Part shown: positions 1 through 8,291 of the stretch, piece by piece | How the letters are laid out: each line of letters opens with the position of its first letter | Position numbering within the stretch: the stretch's first letter is position 1 | Source of the DNA: an archaeon | Lineage (GTDB): Archaea; Iainarchaeota; Iainarchaeia; Iainarchaeales; CSSED10-239 | Direction: 5' to 3' | Assembly: GCA_037147375.1 (NCBI GenBank) | Contig: JBAWVI010000041.1 | Coordinates: forward strand, 1 to 8,291 | Length of the DNA stretch: 8,291 nt | Notes under the pieces: model-generated | Seen by the model: only the letters and a program-made list of their open reading frames with translations | Database searches by the model: none | What the model was told of the DNA's origin: nothing | Translations under genes and position numbers: made by a program

Positions 1-214
1 CTTCCTTTGGCTTATGTCCTTTCTCAATCTTTGCTAAAACATCTTTAAAATTATCTGATATTATCTTATTTCTTGATCTTGAGAGCTTTTCAAGAATTAT
101 TTTTAAATCATTACTTTTAGGAATGGATGAGAGTTTTAAGATTTCATCAATAAGTGCATTCTCTAATTTCTTTTTCTCAAGAGAAAAATAATATTTTTTT
201 AATAAATCTAACAT
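1..214 (-). CDS. T2SSF-domain (TadB/TadC, EpdJ/EpdK-like) platform protein, N-terminal part only; the gene runs off the left edge
   Basis: This ORF is absent from the supplied track because it is open to the window edge. Hand translation of the minus strand from the ATG at 214-212 stays open to base 1: MLDLLKKYYFSLEKKKLENALIDEILKLSSIPKSNDLKIILEKLSRSRNKIISDNFKDVLAKIEKGHKPKE. The frame is closed upstream by TAA at 262-260. A GGAG lies about 13 nt upstream of the ATG. The gene follows the preceding T2SSF gene after a 22-nt gap. The helical segment ending in the I-x-K-G-x-x-x-x-E pattern resembles the cytoplasmic bundle of T2SSF proteins. The family call is by eye only. Confidence 0.5.
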   Translation of the reverse strand, partial: MLDLLKKYYFSLEKKKLENALIDEILKLSSIPKSNDLKIILEKLSRSRNKIISDNFKDVLAKIEKGHKPKE

Positions 215-980: not shown

Positions 981-2855
981 TTATGGTTTACTCCTCTCGT
1001 TTAGAGATTCTGTAAAATAAGAAAGAACATCTGTTGGGGAGGGGGAGAGGTTTTTTCTAGTTTGGATGTCCAAGAAATATAACAACTTTTTATTTTGCTT
1101 TTTAAATAATTTATTTAATTCTGCATTTGTCTTGATTCCAAAAGCCATCCTAAACTTATCAAACAGCTTTTTTGGAGTTCCAACTCTTACAAGCTTTTCT
1201 TTATTTATATCAAACTCAAACAATTTGTTTAAGGTTGGTTTATTATTTTCAAAAACCACTTCACAAATTTCAGTAATATTTCTAAGATCAGATACTTTAC
1301 CTTTATTGTACTTATTATATCTTCTTTGAACAATAATTAAATCAATAACAGACAAATCATTTTCAATAACACCATAAGAAACTAATCTTAGAAGAGCTTC
1401 CTTTGCGTTTTGAGAATGAAAAGTGGTATATGTTCCTTTTGCTTGACCACAAAGCATAGAATCAATTATTGCTCTTGCTTCTTCTCTTGATCTAACTTCT
1501 CCAATAACCACTCTATCAGGTCTCATTCTAAGTGTATTAATTACAAGAGAATCAAGAGTAATTCCAAGATCTGAGTTTACAAGAGTAAATATCTTATGCT
1601 CGTGTGGAATATTTATTTCTCTAACTTCTTCAACCACAACAAACCTTTCATCAAATGGAACAAAAGATAAAAGTGTGTTAAGTGTAGTTGTTTTACCAGA
1701 ACCAGTGTTACCTACAACAAAAACATTTGAATCAGTTAAGAAAGCAAGAGATAAAAAAGAAAGAGCATAAATTGATAACGTGTTTCTTTTAATTAAATCC
1801 ACAATTGTAAATGGCTTTTCAGAAAACTTCCTAATTGTAACACACACGCTTTCTGTAATTGGAGAAATAATTGCATTCATTCTTGAAGCACCAATTGTAG
1901 CATCAAGAAGTGGATTTTTCAAAGTTATATATTTATTTGTTTCCCAGGATAGTTTATTAATTAAATCTTTAATTATCTTTGAAGATGTGTAAATTAGATT
2001 TGTTTCAAGCCATCCATAAGTTCTATGATACACAAAAACTGGTTTGTTTTCTCCAATTATTGAAATTTCTTCTAAACTATCATCTGCAAGCAATTTAGAG
2101 AGAGGCCCATAATCATAAAGATTGCTGTATGCAAGTAAAAGAATATAATTAAACTGATCAGACTCAAGTTCAATTTTTTCTCTATAACAATAATTAACTA
2201 AGGTTTCTTCAAGTTCTTCTTTTACAATTTCAGGAAGCTTATCTAGTTTACTTATTTTATCTTGCTTTTCTTTATCATCCTTAATATCAAATCTTTCTCT
2301 ATATTCATCTATAACTAAATTAATTATTTCAATTTCGTCTATTGAAAGAATAGATTCATCAATAAAATAATGCTTCTTTCCAAAATCATCTATGCATACG
2401 TTCTTTGATATGTTTCTTTTATTAAATTCAATTATTTTATATCCAAGATATTTATTAATAATTTCTAATTCTTCGTTTTTGCTTGTGTCTGTAACTAGTT
2501 CTAAGATATCAGGATTATTCTTTAAACAATACATGTTAAATGATTGATAAGAGCATAAATCACATTTTTGTGCCTTACTTTTCTTTAAAATAAGTGCATT
2601 ATTAGGGCAAGCTTCAATACATGCCTTGCATCCATTACATCTTGCTTGATCAATTGATACAACTCCTTTTGCAGAAAAATAGATTGCATTAGTTTTACAA
2701 GAATTTAAGCAAGGCGGATCTTCACAATTTTTACAATTAAAAATAATTATTGAATCTCTAGTTTTAAATTCATATGGACAATTAAGAAAAAGGTTTTTGT
2801 TTTTTCTCTTAGATAGTAGCTTAGATGTTTCTTCATTTTTAAATTTAATATACAT
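981..2855 (-). CDS. Type II/IV secretion / type IV filament assembly ATPase (FlaI/PilB/CpaF-VirB11 superfamily) with an N-terminal 4Fe-4S ferredoxin-like domain
   Basis: ORF track, 624 aa. ATPase core motifs are present:
- Walker A: VVGNTGSGKTTTLNTL (encoded around 1691-1717).
- Asp box: ERFVVVEEVREINIP.
- Walker B: LRMRPDRVVIGEVRSREEA.
- His box: KGTYTTFHSQ.
Upstream are blocks typical of the FlaI/GspE N-terminal domain (LEEISIIGENKPVFVYHRTYGWLETN, DATIGASRMNAI, VTIRKFSEKPFTIVDLI). The N-terminal region of about 110 aa is Cys-rich (see the separate feature). GTGAT lies 8 nt upstream of the ATG at 2855-2853. Confidence 0.9.
   Translation of the reverse strand: MYIKFKNEETSKLLSKRKNKNLFLNCPYEFKTRDSIIIFNCKNCEDPPCLNSCKTNAIYFSAKGVVSIDQARCNGCKACIEACPNNALILKKSKAQKCDLCSYQSFNMYCLKNNPDILELVTDTSKNEELEIINKYLGYKIIEFNKRNISKNVCIDDFGKKHYFIDESILSIDEIEIINLVIDEYRERFDIKDDKEKQDKISKLDKLPEIVKEELEETLVNYCYREKIELESDQFNYILLLAYSNLYDYGPLSKLLADDSLEEISIIGENKPVFVYHRTYGWLETNLIYTSSKIIKDLINKLSWETNKYITLKNPLLDATIGASRMNAIISPITESVCVTIRKFSEKPFTIVDLIKRNTLSIYALSFLSLAFLTDSNVFVVGNTGSGKTTTLNTLLSFVPFDERFVVVEEVREINIPHEHKIFTLVNSDLGITLDSLVINTLRMRPDRVVIGEVRSREEARAIIDSMLCGQAKGTYTTFHSQNAKEALLRLVSYGVIENDLSVIDLIIVQRRYNKYNKGKVSDLRNITEICEVVFENNKPTLNKLFEFDINKEKLVRVGTPKKLFDKFRMAFGIKTNAELNKLFKKQNKKLLYFLDIQTRKNLSPSPTDVLSYFTESLNERSKP
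2526..2780 (-). other. Cys-rich polyferredoxin-like module (residues ~26-110 of the ATPase ORF)
   Basis: Twelve Cys occur in about 85 aa. The groups are CKNCEDPPCLNSC followed by KTNAIYF (C-x2-C-x4-C-x3-C), CNGCKACIEACP (C-x2-C-x2-C-x3-C-P, the canonical 4Fe-4S motif), and KCDLC...YC. The spacing and flanking residues match DmsB/NrfC/PsrB-type 4Fe-4S dicluster domains as I remember them. Confidence 0.7.
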
Positions 2856-2959: not shown

Positions 2960-3754
2960 TTATGGGTTATTAATATCAAACACGTTTGCCATAGCATTGT
3001 AACTTGATTTAAACTTTTGATATAATTCTGAAAAGTTAGTTAACATAGTTGTGTTAAGTCTACCTTCAATCCCATTCATTGAATCGGATATACTTACATT
3101 AATATCATTTATCTTAGAATTAACAGACCCAAATTGAGTGTTTACGTTACTAAATTCATTCATAATATTATTATCAATATAATTTTGTACACCATATACT
3201 CTAGCATCAACTGAATTTATTCTTTCAGTTAAATTACTATCAAGGTCATTTAATCTTTGAACAAGTGCAACATATTGCTCTCTTTGTGATCTTGAAACCT
3301 CTACAATTAAATTAAGTCCTGTTGAAACGTGGAATGAAGAAGATACTTGTAATAATCTTGGAGTTCCATTTCTAATTACTGTACATCTAATATATTCTTC
3401 ATATATTCCTTCATTCTCTGGAGTAATAAATGAAACATAATAGTTTCCTGGAACAGTTGTTGAAATCATTTCTCTATCCACAAAGAAAAAAGATTTATCA
3501 GGATATAATAAAGACACAATACAATTTGCATCAGTTATTGATATTCCTTTTGAATCTTGCAGTCTAACAATTATCTGACCTTGCTCATTACTTATGTATT
3601 CAGTTCCTGATACCATCTTAAGATCTGATGCAACTCCTCTTCCTTTAAAGTAAAAGAAAAGGAACGTGCCTATAGCAAGAAGAAGGATTATACCTATTAC
3701 AAAGTATATTCTTTTATCACTTAGATTTTCTCGCATGTGGGATCTAAACATCAT
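2960..3754 (-). CDS. N-terminally membrane-anchored surface protein, short paralogue of the 643-aa repeat protein (2-Cys beta-rich domain plus about one degenerate repeat unit)
   Basis: ORF track, 264 aa. A basic stretch (SDKR) precedes a hydrophobic helix, IYFVIGIILLLAIGTFLFFYF. Residues ~47-143 align by eye with residues ~46-145 of the 643-aa protein. Shared blocks are TEY, IVRL-D--G, C-V--L-PDKS-F, GN-Y, G-YE, C, NGT and SSFH. The C-terminal part (INDINVSISDSMNGIEGRLNTTMLTNFSELY) resembles the 55-aa repeat of the larger gene. About five N-X-S/T sequons lie after the anchor. Confidence 0.75.
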   Translation of the reverse strand: MMFRSHMRENLSDKRIYFVIGIILLLAIGTFLFFYFKGRGVASDLKMVSGTEYISNEQGQIIVRLQDSKGISITDANCIVSLLYPDKSFFFVDREMISTTVPGNYYVSFITPENEGIYEEYIRCTVIRNGTPRLLQVSSSFHVSTGLNLIVEVSRSQREQYVALVQRLNDLDSNLTERINSVDARVYGVQNYIDNNIMNEFSNVNTQFGSVNSKINDINVSISDSMNGIEGRLNTTMLTNFSELYQKFKSSYNAMANVFDINNP

Positions 3755-3860: not shown

Positions 3861-5792
3861 TTATGATATTATTCTAACATCAATCTGACTCTGTTGATTA
3901 TCTAAAATCTCATGAGCTGTTGAATTGATGTCTGTTGTTTGTGATTTTATGATACCAATGTCTGTTAATAATGTATCAATTCTTGATGATATACTTCCTG
4001 AAAGATATTCCCAGGTTGTTGTTGTAGTATTATCTATCTCATCAAGTCTTGCTACTTGTTCATTATGCATTACTACAGCTGCTGCTTTGATATTATATAT
4101 TTCTTGACACAATGCACTTGAATCTGTTTGTGGATTTGAACAAAATTGTTCAAGTAAAGCAATGTTTCCATCAATATTTGCAAATCTTTGGTCTATTGCT
4201 ACTCTATCTGTGTCATTCATAGCATGTACTGTAAGCCATGTAGTATCATCCTTAACACTTTGTACTTGTGTTGATAATTGTTCAAGCATTACGTTTAATT
4301 GAGCATTTAAGTCTCCAGCAACAAGGCTTGTAATCATATTAGATAAAGATGAATTAACATCTGATAAATCTGATTTGATTTCTTGTCCTGTAGTTACTAC
4401 TTGTCCATTAACGCTAACTTCTAAACTATCAAGTCTTGCACTTAAGAAATTATTTGAATCTAAGAACTTTTGTGCAATTAAAGCATTTGTGTTATTAAAT
4501 TGGTTTGTGATTTGACTTGACAAACTTACGTTTAATGCATCTAAGATATCTGTTAAGTTTGTATTAACGTTTGTTAAGTTTGTGTTTATCTCGTCACCAG
4601 TATCTTGAACCTTTGCATTTAAACTTAAATTTACGTTTTCTAATTGAGCAGAAAGTTCAGCAAATTTAGTTGTCATTTGTGTTGAAAGGTTTGTGTTTAC
4701 TGTGTTTAAAAGGTTTGTTAAAGATGTATCAACGTTTGTTAAGTGTGCGTTAATAGCGTCACCAGTAGCAACCATTCTTCCATCTATACTTAAGTTAATA
4801 TCTTCTAAGTTATTTCCAAGAGCTAAAAACTCAGAGCCCATTTGGTTTGAAAGGTTTGTGTTTACTGTGTTTAAGATATTTGTCATTGATGTATTAACAT
4901 CACTTAAGTTTGTAGTAATGATTTGTCCTGTTTCTGCAACCTTTGCCATGATTGTTAAATTAACATCACTTAATTGTGCAGTTTCTGCATTAAATGAACT
5001 TAACATCTGACCTGAAAGGTTAGTATTTACTGTATTTAATAAACTTGTTAATGATGTGTTTGATGTACTAATACTTGTTTGTAATTCTTGTCCTGTAGTT
5101 ACTACAGTTCCAGTAATACTTACATTAACATCATTTAATTGTGTCCCAAGTGTATTAATTCCTTCAGCTAATTGGCTTGTAACACCTGTATTAACATCTG
5201 TTACTAAATTATTTAAGTTTGTATTCATGTTTGCTATGTTTGTTGTTAATGTTTGATTTGTGTCTGCAATCTTTGCACTTAAAGAAACATTTACTTGTCC
5301 AAGGTTTGCATCAAGTGCATCTACCTTTTCAGTAACTATCTTAACTTGCTCTAAAGCTGGATTTAAGTGGAATGATTGAGATGTTTTAACTGTTTGTGTT
5401 CCGTTTACACAAGTTACTTCTTGTTCGTATGTTCCAAGTGGAGCACCAACAAGTGAATCTGTTCTATACCAGTTTCCTGCAATATTTGATAAAGCCATTG
5501 GCTGGTTATTAACAAATGTACTTTTATCAGGTCTTAAGATTGTAACATTACAAGATTCAACTTGATATGGTTCACCTTGATAATCAGCAAGTCTTACTAT
5601 TGTTGAGGCTACATCATCTCTCCAATATTCAGTGTGAGAAACCCAACTGACTACTGGTTCATTAACTGTTTGTTTACCATCAGTGTATGCAAATGCAAAA
5701 AATGCAATTACAACAATTATAATGGTTGAAACAATACCCCATTTAATAAGCTTCTTTTTTTTGTTTGTATATTTTGGATTTAAATCTTCCAT
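3861..5792 (-). CDS. Large N-terminally anchored surface protein: 2-Cys beta-rich domain, six 55-aa Asn/Thr/Ser/Leu/Val-rich tandem repeats, non-repetitive C-terminal domain
   Basis: ORF track, 643 aa.
- A KKKKLIK stretch precedes the hydrophobic helix WGIVSTIIIVVIAFFAFAY (positive-inside, so the C-terminus is predicted outside).
- GGTGA (plus 5800-5804) lies 7 nt upstream of the ATG at 5792-5790.
- The membrane-proximal domain is at aa ~46-145 and carries C81 and C128.
- The repeat block is at aa 164-508.
- The C-terminal domain is at aa ~509-643 and carries C551 and C562.
I counted about 22 N-X-S/T sequons by hand. Confidence 0.85.
   Translation of the reverse strand: MEDLNPKYTNKKKKLIKWGIVSTIIIVVIAFFAFAYTDGKQTVNEPVVSWVSHTEYWRDDVASTIVRLADYQGEPYQVESCNVTILRPDKSTFVNNQPMALSNIAGNWYRTDSLVGAPLGTYEQEVTCVNGTQTVKTSQSFHLNPALEQVKIVTEKVDALDANLGQVNVSLSAKIADTNQTLTTNIANMNTNLNNLVTDVNTGVTSQLAEGINTLGTQLNDVNVSITGTVVTTGQELQTSISTSNTSLTSLLNTVNTNLSGQMLSSFNAETAQLSDVNLTIMAKVAETGQIITTNLSDVNTSMTNILNTVNTNLSNQMGSEFLALGNNLEDINLSIDGRMVATGDAINAHLTNVDTSLTNLLNTVNTNLSTQMTTKFAELSAQLENVNLSLNAKVQDTGDEINTNLTNVNTNLTDILDALNVSLSSQITNQFNNTNALIAQKFLDSNNFLSARLDSLEVSVNGQVVTTGQEIKSDLSDVNSSLSNMITSLVAGDLNAQLNVMLEQLSTQVQSVKDDTTWLTVHAMNDTDRVAIDQRFANIDGNIALLEQFCSNPQTDSSALCQEIYNIKAAAVVMHNEQVARLDEIDNTTTTTWEYLSGSISSRIDTLLTDIGIIKSQTTDINSTAHEILDNQQSQIDVRIIS
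4269..5303 (-). repeat. In-frame tandem repeat array, period 165 nt (55 aa), six units; the central units are the best conserved
   Basis: The 26-mer GAAAGGTTTGTGTTTACTGTGTTTAA occurs at 4684-4709 and again at 4849-4874, exactly 165 nt apart. A degenerate copy, GAAAGGTTAGTATTTACTGTATTTAA, lies at 5014-5039, a further 165 nt on. The protein units start at L164, L219, L274, L329, L384 and, after a 15-aa insertion, L454. The unit consensus is roughly L-x-[DN]-V-N-[VL]-S-[IL]-x-[AG]-x-V-x-[DT]-T-G-x-x-I-x-T-N-L-[ST]-x-V-N-T-[SN]-[LM]-T-x-[IL]-L-N-T-V-N-T-N-L-S-x-Q-M. Confidence 0.9.
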
Positions 5793-6069: not shown

Positions 6070-6690
6070 TCATTTATTTAAAACAAGTATAAACTTTCTT
6101 TTTTTAATTGATTTTTCATTATAAATAAATTTGTTAACGTAAAAATTACATCTTTCAAATGCAGATGTAACAATTTCAAAAGTTTTTTCATCTTTTGGAT
6201 AAAATTGAATAACACAAACACCATTTTCTGAAAGAAGACTAAACACATTCTTCCCAATCTTCTTAATAATGTTTTTAATTTCCATCTCTTCTTTATTAGA
6301 GATCACCCATTGAAGAGCTGACACAGAAATAATTAAATTAAAATTATTCTTTTCTAAAGACAATTTATTTAAATCAAGAAACCCACCTACAAAAACATCT
6401 AAATTTTTCTTTTTTGCAATATTTATCATTTCGTGTGCAACATCAATTCCAACTAAACTTTCATATCCAAGAGATTTAAGATAAGTTAGAGAAAACCCAG
6501 TACCACATCCAATATCAAGTATCTTATCTTCTTTATTTGGCTCAGTATCTAAAAGAGCAAGGAGAATAGATGTTAATTCTTCTTGAGTTTTTCTCATCCC
6601 ACTTGATTGATCATATCTTTCTGCTTCTTCTCTTGTATAAAAAGAATTTGGATCTTCGTGTTCTTCTTCAGGAGTAATTTTTTTATTCAT
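6070..6690 (-). CDS. Class I SAM-dependent methyltransferase, Bud23/WBSCR22-like (candidate small-subunit rRNA guanine-N7 methyltransferase)
   Basis: ORF track, 206 aa, TGA stop at 6072-6070. SAM motif I is ILDIGCGTGFS. Other blocks match my recollection of conserved Bud23/WBSCR22 segments:
- N-terminal P-x-x-FY-x-x-EEAERY.
- SVSALQWV.
- VIQFYPKDEKTFEIVTSAFERCNF.
- C-terminal KKRKFILVLNK.
The basic C-terminal extension found in eukaryotic Bud23 is absent. Confidence 0.8.
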   Translation of the reverse strand: MNKKITPEEEHEDPNSFYTREEAERYDQSSGMRKTQEELTSILLALLDTEPNKEDKILDIGCGTGFSLTYLKSLGYESLVGIDVAHEMINIAKKKNLDVFVGGFLDLNKLSLEKNNFNLIISVSALQWVISNKEEMEIKNIIKKIGKNVFSLLSENGVCVIQFYPKDEKTFEIVTSAFERCNFYVNKFIYNEKSIKKRKFILVLNK

Positions 6691-6818: not shown

Positions 6819-7520
6819 ATGATATCTCAAAACGTTGTTGAACTAAAAGATGTGTATAAAACATATAAGATGGGAGATAATGAAGTACATGCTCTTGATG
6901 GAGTTACTCTCACAATTAAGAAAGGTGAGTTTGTTTCTATTATGGGAGCATCTGGTTCTGGTAAATCCACAATGATGCATATTATAGGTGCTCTTGATCT
7001 TCCAACTAGAGGAGAAGTTTTAATTAATAATAAAAGACTTTCAACTCAAACAGAAGATGAGCTTGCACACATTAGAGGAAAATCAATTGGCTTTGTTTTC
7101 CAAGAGTTTAACTTAATTCCAACTCTTACAGCTCTTGAAAACGTAAATCTTCCTGTTCTTTTCCAAGAAGATGGAGATGATGATCACATTAATAGATGTA
7201 AAGCATTACTTGGTCTTGTAGGATTACATGAAAGAATAGATCACAAACCAAATGAATTATCTGGTGGGCAACAACAAAGAGTTGCAATTGCAAGAGCTCT
7301 TGCAAACAATCCAGAAATTATTTTAGCTGATGAACCAACAGGTGCTCTTGATTCAAAATCAAGTCTTGAAATTATTCAACTTCTTGAAAAATTAAATAAA
7401 GATGGACACACAATTATAATTATTACTCATGATCCAGGAGTAGCAAAACATGCAAGAAGAAATGTATTTTTAAAAGATGGAAAAATAATTACAGATTCCG
7501 CAAATAAAGCAAAAATCTAA
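6819..7520 (+). CDS. ABC transporter ATP-binding protein, MacB/LolD/FtsE-like subfamily
   Basis: ORF track, 233 aa. Motifs present:
- Walker A: GASGSGKST.
- Q-loop: FVFQEFNL.
- ABC signature: LSGGQQQRVAIARAL.
- Walker B: IILADEPTGALD.
- H-loop: IIITHD.
A gene for an FtsX/MacB-type permease follows 12 nt downstream. Confidence 0.95.
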   Translation: MISQNVVELKDVYKTYKMGDNEVHALDGVTLTIKKGEFVSIMGASGSGKSTMMHIIGALDLPTRGEVLINNKRLSTQTEDELAHIRGKSIGFVFQEFNLIPTLTALENVNLPVLFQEDGDDDHINRCKALLGLVGLHERIDHKPNELSGGQQQRVAIARALANNPEIILADEPTGALDSKSSLEIIQLLEKLNKDGHTIIIITHDPGVAKHARRNVFLKDGKIITDSANKAKI

Positions 7521-7532
7521 ACTGAAATAAAT

Positions 7533-8291
7533 ATGAAACAATTACCTTTGTTTGTTATAAATAATCTAAGACGTAGAAAACTTAGAAGTTGGTTAACCAT
7601 TATAGGTATAATTGTTGGGGTTCTTGCAATAGTTTCATTAATGTCTTTATCTCAAGGTTTAAAAGATTCAATTACAAGTGAGTTTGATAAACTTGGTGCA
7701 CAAAAAATAACTATTGATTCTAAATTAAATGCACTTGGTGCTGAAACAAATAAAGGTTTAACAACAGATGATATTAGAGAAATTAAGAAAATAAGCGATA
7801 TACAAGACGTTGTTGGAAAAATAAACTCTGGATTAATAATTAAATATAATGGAGAAAGTAAATTTTTAACAGTTACTGGATATGATATTACTCAAATGAC
7901 AGAAATATTCAAGCAAGACAATGTTGAATTACTTAAAGGACGCCTTCCTGAATCTCAAAAAGCAAAAGAAATAATCATGGGTTATGATTTTTATGTAATT
8001 GATGTAACTAGCAATAATACTCCAAACCCTATGGGTTTTGAAAGTAGTGCATTTAAGAAAAAAATAGATATAGGATCTGAAGTTGAAATAGATAATGAAA
8101 AATACAAAGTTGTTGGTATCCTAAAGGACACAGGAAATACTCAAACAAATAGAAATTGTTATATGCCTATTGAAACTCTAAGAAAAATAACTGGAGCTAG
8201 CGAAACTAGTGTTGATTCTATTTATGCAATTGCTAAAGATGGAAAAGATGTTGAGGTTGTTGGAGAAACAATAAAAGATAAACTTATAAGA
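7533..8291 (+). CDS. ABC transporter permease, FtsX/MacB type (N-terminal TM helix plus extracytoplasmic MacB_PCD-like domain); 3' end lies outside the window
   Basis: This ORF is absent from the track because it has no stop inside the window. Hand translation from the ATG at 7533 stays open for 253 codons to 8291: MKQLPLFVINNLRRRKLRSWLTIIGIIVGVLAIVSLMSLSQGLKDSITSEFDKLGAQKITIDS...KYKVVGILKDTGNTQTNRNCYMPIETLRKITG... The N-terminal motif (L-R-R-R-K-L-R-S-x-L-T followed by a TM helix) and the large soluble domain after it are typical of MacB/FtsX permeases. Confidence 0.85.
   Translation, partial: MKQLPLFVINNLRRRKLRSWLTIIGIIVGVLAIVSLMSLSQGLKDSITSEFDKLGAQKITIDSKLNALGAETNKGLTTDDIREIKKISDIQDVVGKINSGLIIKYNGESKFLTVTGYDITQMTEIFKQDNVELLKGRLPESQKAKEIIMGYDFYVIDVTSNNTPNPMGFESSAFKKKIDIGSEVEIDNEKYKVVGILKDTGNTQTNRNCYMPIETLRKITGASETSVDSIYAIAKDGKDVEVVGETIKDKLIR

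Follow-up and report, generated by a model that had tools for sequence, protein, structure and literature searches.

Type IV filament ATPases belong to the most thoroughly studied motors of prokaryotes, and the N-terminal add-ons known from them sense cyclic di-GMP (c-di-GMP) or dock partners. The MshEN domain of MshE and PilB (c-di-GMP) and the N1E domain of GspE (docking to GspL) are such input or docking domains on motors of the T2SSE family. In archaea, an N-terminal add-on is known on the type IV pilus ATPase HVO_1160 (PMC4858521). AapX (Saci_2316) is encoded in the Aap pilus operon of Sulfolobus acidocaldarius and annotated as an iron-sulphur (Fe-S) protein, and genetic evidence shows that an archaeal type IV pilus depends on it (PMC11178785; PMC4371748); it holds as the precedent for an Fe-S requirement in archaeal pilus formation that an earlier interpretation of the present DNA, here called the sequence-only reading, had named (PMC11178785). 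The window analysed here is a stretch of 8,291 nucleotides (contig JBAWVI010000041.1, assembly GCA_037147375.1) with a GC content of about 28%, from a tiny, uncultured, low-GC DPANN archaeon whose closest named relatives are Candidatus Iainarchaeum and Diapherotrites. It contains a gene for a protein of 624 amino acids in which a multi-[4Fe-4S] ferredoxin domain is joined to the N-terminus of a filament ATPase of the FlaI/afGspE/CpaF type (Table 1). This Fe-S-fused ATPase is a real and conserved variant of a known machine; it is apparently uncharacterized and is not unique to the window.

The comparison with MshEN and N1E is a functional analogy, and the fold and the ligand are unrelated. AapX is a separate protein acting in trans, and its likeness to the window domain is an analogy by annotation only. 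Among the closest described systems are the archaeal motors FlaI (ArlI) and afGspE for the ATPase, and the ferredoxin subunits with four clusters for the N-terminal domain.

The gene product is a complete and apparently active assembly ATPase of a type IV-filament-like machine and a subunit of a hexameric motor. The T2SSE profile (PF00437) gives 112 bits against a Pfam cut-off of 24.9, which places the protein in the T2SSE superfamily, and the Walker A, Asp box, Walker B and His box motifs all sit on invariant or near-invariant columns of a 40-sequence full-length family alignment (A1). The AlphaFold2 (AF2) model of the full length has a predicted local distance difference test (pLDDT) score of 88.3 and a predicted template modelling score of 0.73. 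In Foldseek searches with this model afGspE (2oap, E 2.8e-34), FlaI (4ihq/4ii7, E about 1e-31) and CpaF (8rkd) come out on top, in agreement with a predicted two-domain archaeal GspE/FlaI fold made up of an N-terminal and a C-terminal domain. Because these alignments cover about 500-520 columns of the 624 residues, the ATPase is complete, with some 110 residues added in front of it. The claim of the sequence-only reading that the remainder is a complete ATPase of the FlaI/CpaF type, with all four motifs intact, is thereby confirmed.

Residues from about 115 to 624 match FlaI (4IHQ/4II7) and afGspE (2OAP) from end to end (Foldseek E 1e-31 to 3e-34, template modelling score about 0.72-0.75 when normalised to the target), with all nucleotide-binding motifs and an adjacent platform gene in common. 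Unlike these motors, the window protein has the additional 110-residue Fe-S domain, its locus has no archaellin and no FlaF, FlaG or FlaH, and the platform is split in two. The best ATPase model in NCBIfam is that of FlaI; an assignment as archaellum motor FlaI/ArlI (NF058587) is rejected, since the score is 179 bits against a cut-off of 550 and archaellum genes are absent from the window and from L001, the locus of a relative 84% identical. CpaF/TadA with TadB/TadC shares the T2SSE core (8rkd/9e24) and the arrangement of two one-domain platform proteins after the ATPase. Compared with it, the window protein falls below the family cut-off (TIGR03819, 133 bits against 373, which rejects the Tad ATPase TadA/CpaF as an identity) and is archaeal rather than bacterial, and the N-terminus of CpaF has no Fe-S domain.

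The N-terminal domain passes the cut-offs of two Fe-S profiles, Fer4_11 (PF13247, 38.5 bits against 26.2, residues 40-102) and Fer4 (PF00037, 29.3 bits against 21.1, residues 67-88), and the protein thus also belongs to the Fer4_11-type ferredoxin superfamily. The AF2 model of residues 1-135 has a pLDDT of 87.5, and the Foldseek matches of this model are multi-cluster ferredoxin subunits only, all with probability 1.0 and 29-42% identity: 9mqx_G/E (AOR Fe-S subunit), 2ivf_B (ethylbenzene dehydrogenase beta), PsrB (2vpw_B), WOR5 (6x6u_B), FdnH (1kqf_B), HycB3/4 of HDCR (7qv7) and NarH (1q16_B). Sequence searches of the PDB concur with the fold matches, and the model is predicted to share the ferredoxin-like fold of the solved four-cluster subunits. 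A Zn ribbon or a disordered N-terminus is rejected on the exclusively ferredoxin-like matches and on the pLDDT, as far as prediction reaches. The sequence-only reading had proposed a covalently fused Fe-S domain of the DmsB/NrfC/PsrB type and had suggested Fe-S profiles and structure prediction as checks; both speak for the domain as proposed, with a predicted four-cluster ferredoxin fold and not a Zn ribbon. A search for homologues of the isolated N-terminal 135 residues gave no matches, which is attributed to the word-index method and not to biology. The N-terminus remained below the cut-off of every NCBIfam model compared (DsrO, DmsB, AegA, TtrB, HydN, NrfC and FdnH-beta). As a named oxidoreductase beta subunit (DmsB, DsrO, NrfC, TtrB, HydN or FdnH equivalogs) it is rejected, with best scores of 36-50 bits where the cut-offs are 200-480. 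It is no HycB equivalog either, and the defining partners are absent. Only NCBIfam and PDB matches served to judge which free-standing donor family is closest.

Twelve cysteines are found in the first 110 residues (C26, C41, C44, C49, C53, C73, C76, C79, C83, C98, C101 and C110), with the spacings CKNCEDPPCLNSC, CNGCKACIEACP and KCDLC...C as the sequence-only reading had given them. Its view of three loose cysteine groups does not hold, since these are probably three cluster ligand sets of a four-cluster protein that lacks an FS1-like cluster. The N-terminal alignment of the family has 16 canonical cysteine columns, which correspond to groups I-IV of a DmsB/HycB/NarH-type four-cluster protein. 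The window protein does not have the full 16: it has 12, without the first three cysteines of group I (I1-3) and the fourth of group IV (IV4). In group IV, K97, C98, D99, L100, C101 and C110 are invariant in a 25-sequence alignment of the domain (A2), and in A1 C101 and C110 are invariant with C98, D99 and L100 at least 90% conserved. The domain has cysteine groups II-IV (CxxCxxxxCxxxC(P) and KCxxC) and the predicted fold in common with the four-cluster subunits DmsB, NarH, FdnH, PsrB/NrfC, HycB, HydN and the small subunits of WOR5/AOR, and distant members of the fused family carry all four groups. It differs from these in that it is not free-standing, that no catalytic or membrane-anchor partner is encoded in the locus and that the FS1-like cluster is lost.

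The fused homologues, which reach down to about 35% identity in dozens of clusters at 90% identity, have quantised cysteine counts of 16, 12 or 8 over the first 140 residues. Among 122 fused sequences all 16 cysteines are present in 36. The pattern '...C CCCC CCCC CCC.' (groups I, II, III and IV) is found in the 54 sequences of the window clade, which keep the same 12 columns down to about 51% identity, far beyond chance, and lack IV4 throughout. Eleven sequences (P0016/P0017 cluster) have '...C ...C CCC. CCC.', four (P0102, P0151, L012, L015) have 'CCCC ...C CCC. CCCC', and in five (P0087 group) the group III hairpin is deleted. The rest are a few singletons, mostly truncated at the N-terminus or irregular. 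Irregular or shortened cysteine patterns with 9-10 cysteines were also seen in the 50%-identity representatives P0223, P0236, P0251, P0182 and P0194, where the domain may be decaying, the start mis-called or the clusters arranged in an alternative way.

In ferredoxin folds the ligands of a cluster are three cysteines of one motif and the fourth cysteine of a partner motif. With this canonical cross-over wiring, 451 of the 488 cluster sites in the 122 sequences have all of their ligands or none, and 37 are partial; if the cysteines are instead grouped by contiguous motif, 183 of the 488 are partial. Three independent losses each remove the three cysteines of one motif together with the distant cysteine that completes the cluster, namely I1-3 with IV4 in the window clade, and II1-3 with III4 both in the P0016/17 lineage and in the P0102/P0151/L012/L015 lineage. 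The loss of whole ligand sets and the retention of C26 strongly argue for real [4Fe-4S] binding and are hard to explain otherwise. A putative cubane-compatible arrangement of the ligands has indirect support from the fold matches and from these joint losses. The window domain thus probably keeps the ligands for three [4Fe-4S] clusters, C41/44/49 with C83, C73/76/79 with C53, and C98/101/110 with C26, the last of these being the putative fourth ligand. A phmmer alignment places window residues 39-101 on residues 182-247 of NarH. With the ligands of NarH numbered as in the E. coli NarGHI structure, C98/101/110 with C26 is FS2-like, C41/44/49 with C83 is FS3-like and C73/76/79 with C53 is FS4-like. 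The set lost in the window clade would then be exactly the four ligands of the FS1-like cluster. In molybdoenzyme beta subunits the FS1-type cluster faces the catalytic subunit. NarH consists of a domain A with FS1:FS2 and a domain B with FS3:FS4 (PMC8301774).

The fused reading frame is well defined. The coding-strand sequence upstream is TTTGTGATATATCTAG-ATG, in which GTGAT, located 8 nt before the ATG as claimed, is a candidate ribosome-binding site. Because an in-frame TAG abuts the ATG, Met1 is the earliest possible start and a longer reading frame is ruled out. The span 2526-2780, assigned to the Fe-S module by the sequence-only reading, runs exactly from the codon of C26 (2778-2780) to that of C110 (2526-2528). 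The N-terminal MY(I/L)K(F/L)K is kept among homologues, and a continuous reading frame of the same architecture recurs in many independent assemblies (ENA, JGI, NCBI and Logan). The ratio of nonsynonymous to synonymous substitution rates (dN/dS) against L001 is 0.13 for residues 26-110 and 0.06 for the ATPase core, which means that the cysteine region is translated and under purifying selection. The homologues with the same reading frame, the dN/dS and the TAG directly before the ATG bear out that the fusion is not a gene-calling artefact. A scan for sigma-70 promoters and terminators gave counts no higher than the shuffle expectation, and a sigma-70 scan is uninformative for an archaeon.

The fusion is present in more than 100 proteins, forming about 30 clusters at 50% identity. 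A cysteine-rich N-terminus is found in 81 of the best 120 clusters at 90% identity, and when 1.84 billion representatives at 50% identity were searched with a profile, about 30 of the best 150 matches were fused. The source names of the fused members are Candidatus Iainarchaeum or 'ainarchaeum', Diapherotrites, Micrarchaeota and 'Nanobdellati archaeon', all DPANN, and the database names are automatic only ('ATPase, T2SS/T4P/T4SS family'; at JGI 'CpaF family ATPase/ferredoxin'). In a rough neighbour-joining tree of the ATPase core the 12-cysteine window clade is monophyletic, and the 16-cysteine and unfused forms are interspersed, which suggests that the fusion is old and has been lost repeatedly. 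Searches of the literature brought up no description of a fusion between an Fe-S domain and a filament ATPase, which is not proof of absence, and the full text of the main survey of archaeal type IV pili (Makarova et al. 2016) mentions neither ferredoxin nor Fe-S. The statement that no characterized example is known therefore stands; the idea of a one-off architecture gives way to a conserved DPANN family of more than 100 sequences that already bears an automatic label at JGI. Related archaeal T2SSE ATPases of 815-1605 amino acids (P0054, P0056, P0061, P0062, P0073, P0088, P0140, P0141 and P0154) have other large extensions, with PF23989 and other domains; some have several ATPase-like stretches and some are named Hydrothermarchaeota. 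These relatives indicate that N-terminal elaboration of the T2SSE motor is common among uncultured archaea.

Downstream of the ATPase gene, and directly abutting its stop codon (981-983) with its own ATG (978-980), lies a gene for one half of a platform protein, followed by the start of a second half. The window copies are weak (17.4 bits with T2SSF), and the adjacent platform gene is recognised through a homologue in AR10; the 247-aa half 1 shares 34% identity (E 1e-32) with this homologue, whose T2SSF score is above the cut-off, and it has a positional orthologue in all related loci. Two single-domain T2SSF genes of the TadB/TadC type follow the ATPase in every fused locus examined, that is, in the window, L001/L002 (84% identity), L083, L084, L085 and the GTDB genomes L003, L004, L005, L012 and L015. 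Comparison of loci L003-L016 and L083-L085 shows the split T2SSF pair also beside unfused members of the DPANN ATPase clade. Orthologous loci with the same platform pair and no Fe-S domain are found in the complete AR10 genome (L006) and in L008, L009, L010 and L013, so the Fe-S domain is accessory. Genes for oxidoreductases, hydrogenases or molybdoenzymes were not found in the loci examined, and the motor has no pilin genes beside it. According to Makarova et al. (PMC4858521), the pilins that serve archaeal ATPase/TadC modules are often encoded in trans, and loci with two tadC genes are common.

The reading favoured here, with a probability of about 0.5 that includes the identity of both halves, is that the Fe-S module serves for input or docking, responds to redox state or O2 and thereby gates the motor, a role of the kind that the sequence-only reading had inferred. 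It would act as an accessory N-terminal domain, at the usual site of regulatory modules in the superfamily and outside the core catalytic mechanism. Motor activity or engagement of the platform would depend on the integrity or redox state of the clusters, through O2 exposure or reduction of the ferredoxin pool, and ATP-costly filament assembly would in this way be gated by the redox and energy status of the cell. Several points weigh against this. Known Fe-S sensors usually have one cluster, not three or four, and a chain of clusters is the hallmark of electron transfer. The sequences are phylogenetically non-independent, so the 451 of 488 sites reduce to a handful of events, the spatial order of the clusters is borrowed from homologous solved enzymes, and no pilin genes are found in the window.

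A somewhat unlikely alternative is a redox-inert structural or mechanical Fe-S knob, comparable to those of ABCE1/Rli1 and RNA polymerase subunit D, which would dock the hexamer to the split platform or another partner and be moved by the ATPase cycle without any sensing. There is almost no linker to the N-terminal domain of the ATPase, whose conserved LGW motif comes directly after the Fe-S domain; single clusters are lost with the fold kept, and orthologous loci can dispense with the domain, all as such a knob would predict. A precedent is ABCE1, with an N-terminal domain of two [4Fe-4S] clusters on an ATPase, and in the archaeal RNA polymerase subunit D (RpoD) lineages keep 0, 1 or 2 Fe-S clusters. 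The likeness is that of a ferredoxin-like Fe-S domain appended to a non-redox machine; it is an analogy, because the ATPase is of the ABC class or there is none, and nothing beyond the generic ferredoxin fold is shared. What a knob leaves unexplained is the strict upkeep of complete ligand sets for three or four clusters at 35-50% identity, and the platform halves, the sole consistently linked partner genes, stand beside unfused ATPases as well.

It is improbable that the domain is an electron-transfer module, leading from a ferredoxin or hydrogenase-like donor to the platform, the filament or the host cell, or serving filament-maturation chemistry. Its closest relatives in sequence and structure are all bona fide wires (MvhB, HycB3/4, FdnH, PsrB, NarH and WOR5), the three clusters left in the window clade follow one another without a gap in the order of NarH (FS2-FS3-FS4), and two 16-cysteine loci have a flavin-reductase gene two genes downstream. 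The FS3-like cluster, however, sits mid-chain in NarH and FdnH. Its loss in two lineages, the P0016/17 and P0102 groups, would break a wire, so that there is no obligatory end-to-end wire in all lineages. Orthologous systems without the domain also speak against a wire, as does the lack of a conserved redox partner, haem-binding or quinone-binding subunit in the loci examined; no Cys or His motif of the platform halves suggests a cofactor. Doubtful to a like degree is the more far-reaching idea that the hexameric motor carries a ring of 18-24 [4Fe-4S] clusters functionally coupled to electron flow, in which reduced ferredoxin would directly license or co-drive filament extension, or electrons would pass via motor and platform to the filament or a host cell.

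A decaying relic of an ancestral fusion, metal-free or Zn-binding in the window lineage, is very improbable. Clusters and the whole domain have been lost repeatedly in the family, and the cysteine patterns of P0223, P0236 and P0251 are irregular, as decay would produce; against it stand the 12 cysteines kept in 54 sequences to about 51% identity with a dN/dS of 0.13, the losses of whole ligand sets rather than of random cysteines, and a confidently predicted, ferredoxin-like fold. A misjoining of two adjacent genes or an assembly chimera, in favour of which nothing was found, is effectively refuted by the same reading frame in independent ENA, JGI, NCBI and Logan assemblies, with a continuous frame and a stop just upstream of the ATG.

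The ATPase gene and the platform genes belong to a co-oriented block of five genes on the minus strand, which begins with genes for a 643-aa and a 264-aa protein. These two proteins are paralogous (26% identity, E 2e-22) and are built alike, with a membrane anchor at the N-terminus, a beta-rich domain that contains two conserved cysteines and a GNW/YY motif, and long helical repeats dense in N-x-S/T sequons; Pfam gives only sub-threshold matches to apolipoprotein and to baculovirus PEP_C repeats. Judged by sequence, both are likely N-glycosylated surface fibres. As pilins they are rejected, because KWG/IVST... and DKR/IYFV... do not, by eye, look like the [KR][GA] site typical of class III signal peptides and because the two are not conserved beside the fused ATPase in distant loci; the 264-aa protein is syntenic in L001/L002 and not in more distant fused loci. 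The L001 homologue of the 643-aa protein is split into reading frames of 165 (7063-7560) and 455 amino acids (7627-8994), which may be due to a frameshift, an assembly error or a genuine truncation within the repeats.

A gene of the PAC2 family (proteasome assembly chaperone-like) regularly follows the platform pair in 16-cysteine and unfused loci (L083 11737-13059, L084 11153-12471, L006 9625-10395, L005 9777-10532, L012 4477-5223). In L083 and L084 it is followed by a gene with a flavin-reductase domain; the window clade has neither and a VTT/DedA gene in their place. As specific partners both are rejected, PAC2 because it also follows the unfused AR10 locus, and the flavin reductase because it is present in two related loci only. 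Immediately upstream of the fused ATPase, the same two 16-cysteine genomes have a second type IV filament-like cluster (L083 1-6841, L084 1-2808) with a full-length T2SSF protein of 400 amino acids, several small proteins, a 1449-aa Laminin_G_3 protein and DUF192, which suggests that the fused motor is there an additional, specialised system. The remaining genes of the window are one for a class I S-adenosylmethionine-dependent methyltransferase, which is syntenic with the ATPase locus in L001, L002 and L085, and one for the ATP-binding protein of a MacB-type ABC transporter, whose module continues in L001 with a 291-aa protein and a MacB_PCD/FtsX permease.

Table 1. Position of the fused gene, its domains and motifs, and the surrounding genes in the window (aa, amino acids)
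Feature	Position	Strand	Basis
Fused reading frame, 624 aa, ATG start	981-2855	minus	
Start context: GTGAT (2864-2868), 8-nt spacer, in-frame TAG (2856-2858), ATG	2856-2868	minus	direct sequence reading
Fe-S domain, aa 1-115, predicted HycB/DmsB/NarH-type four-cluster ferredoxin fold with three putative cluster sites	2511-2855	minus	Fer4_11/Fer4, AF2/Foldseek
C26 in NCPYEF, surviving fourth Cys of group I	2778-2780	minus	at least 90% conserved though Cys 1-3 of group I are gone
Group II, C41-x2-C44-x4-C49-x3-C53	2697-2735	minus	aligns to NarH C184/187/192/196 and to FdnH group II
Group III, C73-x2-C76-x2-C79-x3-C83-P84	2604-2639	minus	PF00037 (aa 67-88) and alignments
Group IV, K97-C98-D-L-C101...C110, fourth Cys missing, NNP in place of CP	2526-2564	minus	
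T2SSE ATPase core, aa 332-511	1323-1862	minus	Pfam T2SSE 112 bits, invariant motif columns
Walker A, GNTGSGKTT, G382-T390	1686-1712	minus	40-sequence alignment
Asp box, E403-I414	1614-1649	minus	40-sequence alignment
Walker B, R445-R455	1491-1523	minus	40-sequence alignment
His box, H480	1413-1424	minus	40-sequence alignment
Platform protein half 1, 247 aa, one T2SSF/TadC-like domain	237-980	minus	weak T2SSF and ArlJ matches, below cut-off
Platform protein half 2, start only, runs off the window	1-214	minus	orthologue of 225-aa L001 gene (12640-13317), weak T2SSF
Membrane-anchored surface protein, 264 aa, upstream in the same orientation	2960-3754	minus	context
Membrane-anchored protein, 643 aa, long N-x-S/T-rich helical repeats, possible surface fibre or cargo	3861-5792	minus	context
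Class I methyltransferase	6070-6690	minus	Methyltransf_25/31/11
MacB-type ABC transporter ATP-binding protein	6819-7520	plus	ABC_tran 123.6 bits
Next gene, runs off the window	about 7513-8291	plus	

For T2SSE motors, input through several Fe-S clusters would be a new principle of regulation, or possibly of energetics. The natural variants with 16, 12, 8 and 0 cysteines are a ready-made mutational series for biochemistry, and through the fusion the still unexplained need for AapX in Aap pilus assembly in Sulfolobus becomes open to tests. If the electron-coupled motor were true, it would be a redox-coupled type IV filament machine of host-dependent DPANN archaea and would offer a molecular explanation for the need for AapX in some archaeal pili. 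As far as source names show, the family is confined to DPANN archaea (Iainarchaeota/Diapherotrites and Micrarchaeota). These organisms need cell-cell contact, and a filament for adhesion or contact that is gated by redox state would matter for the way in which they locate and keep hold of their hosts.

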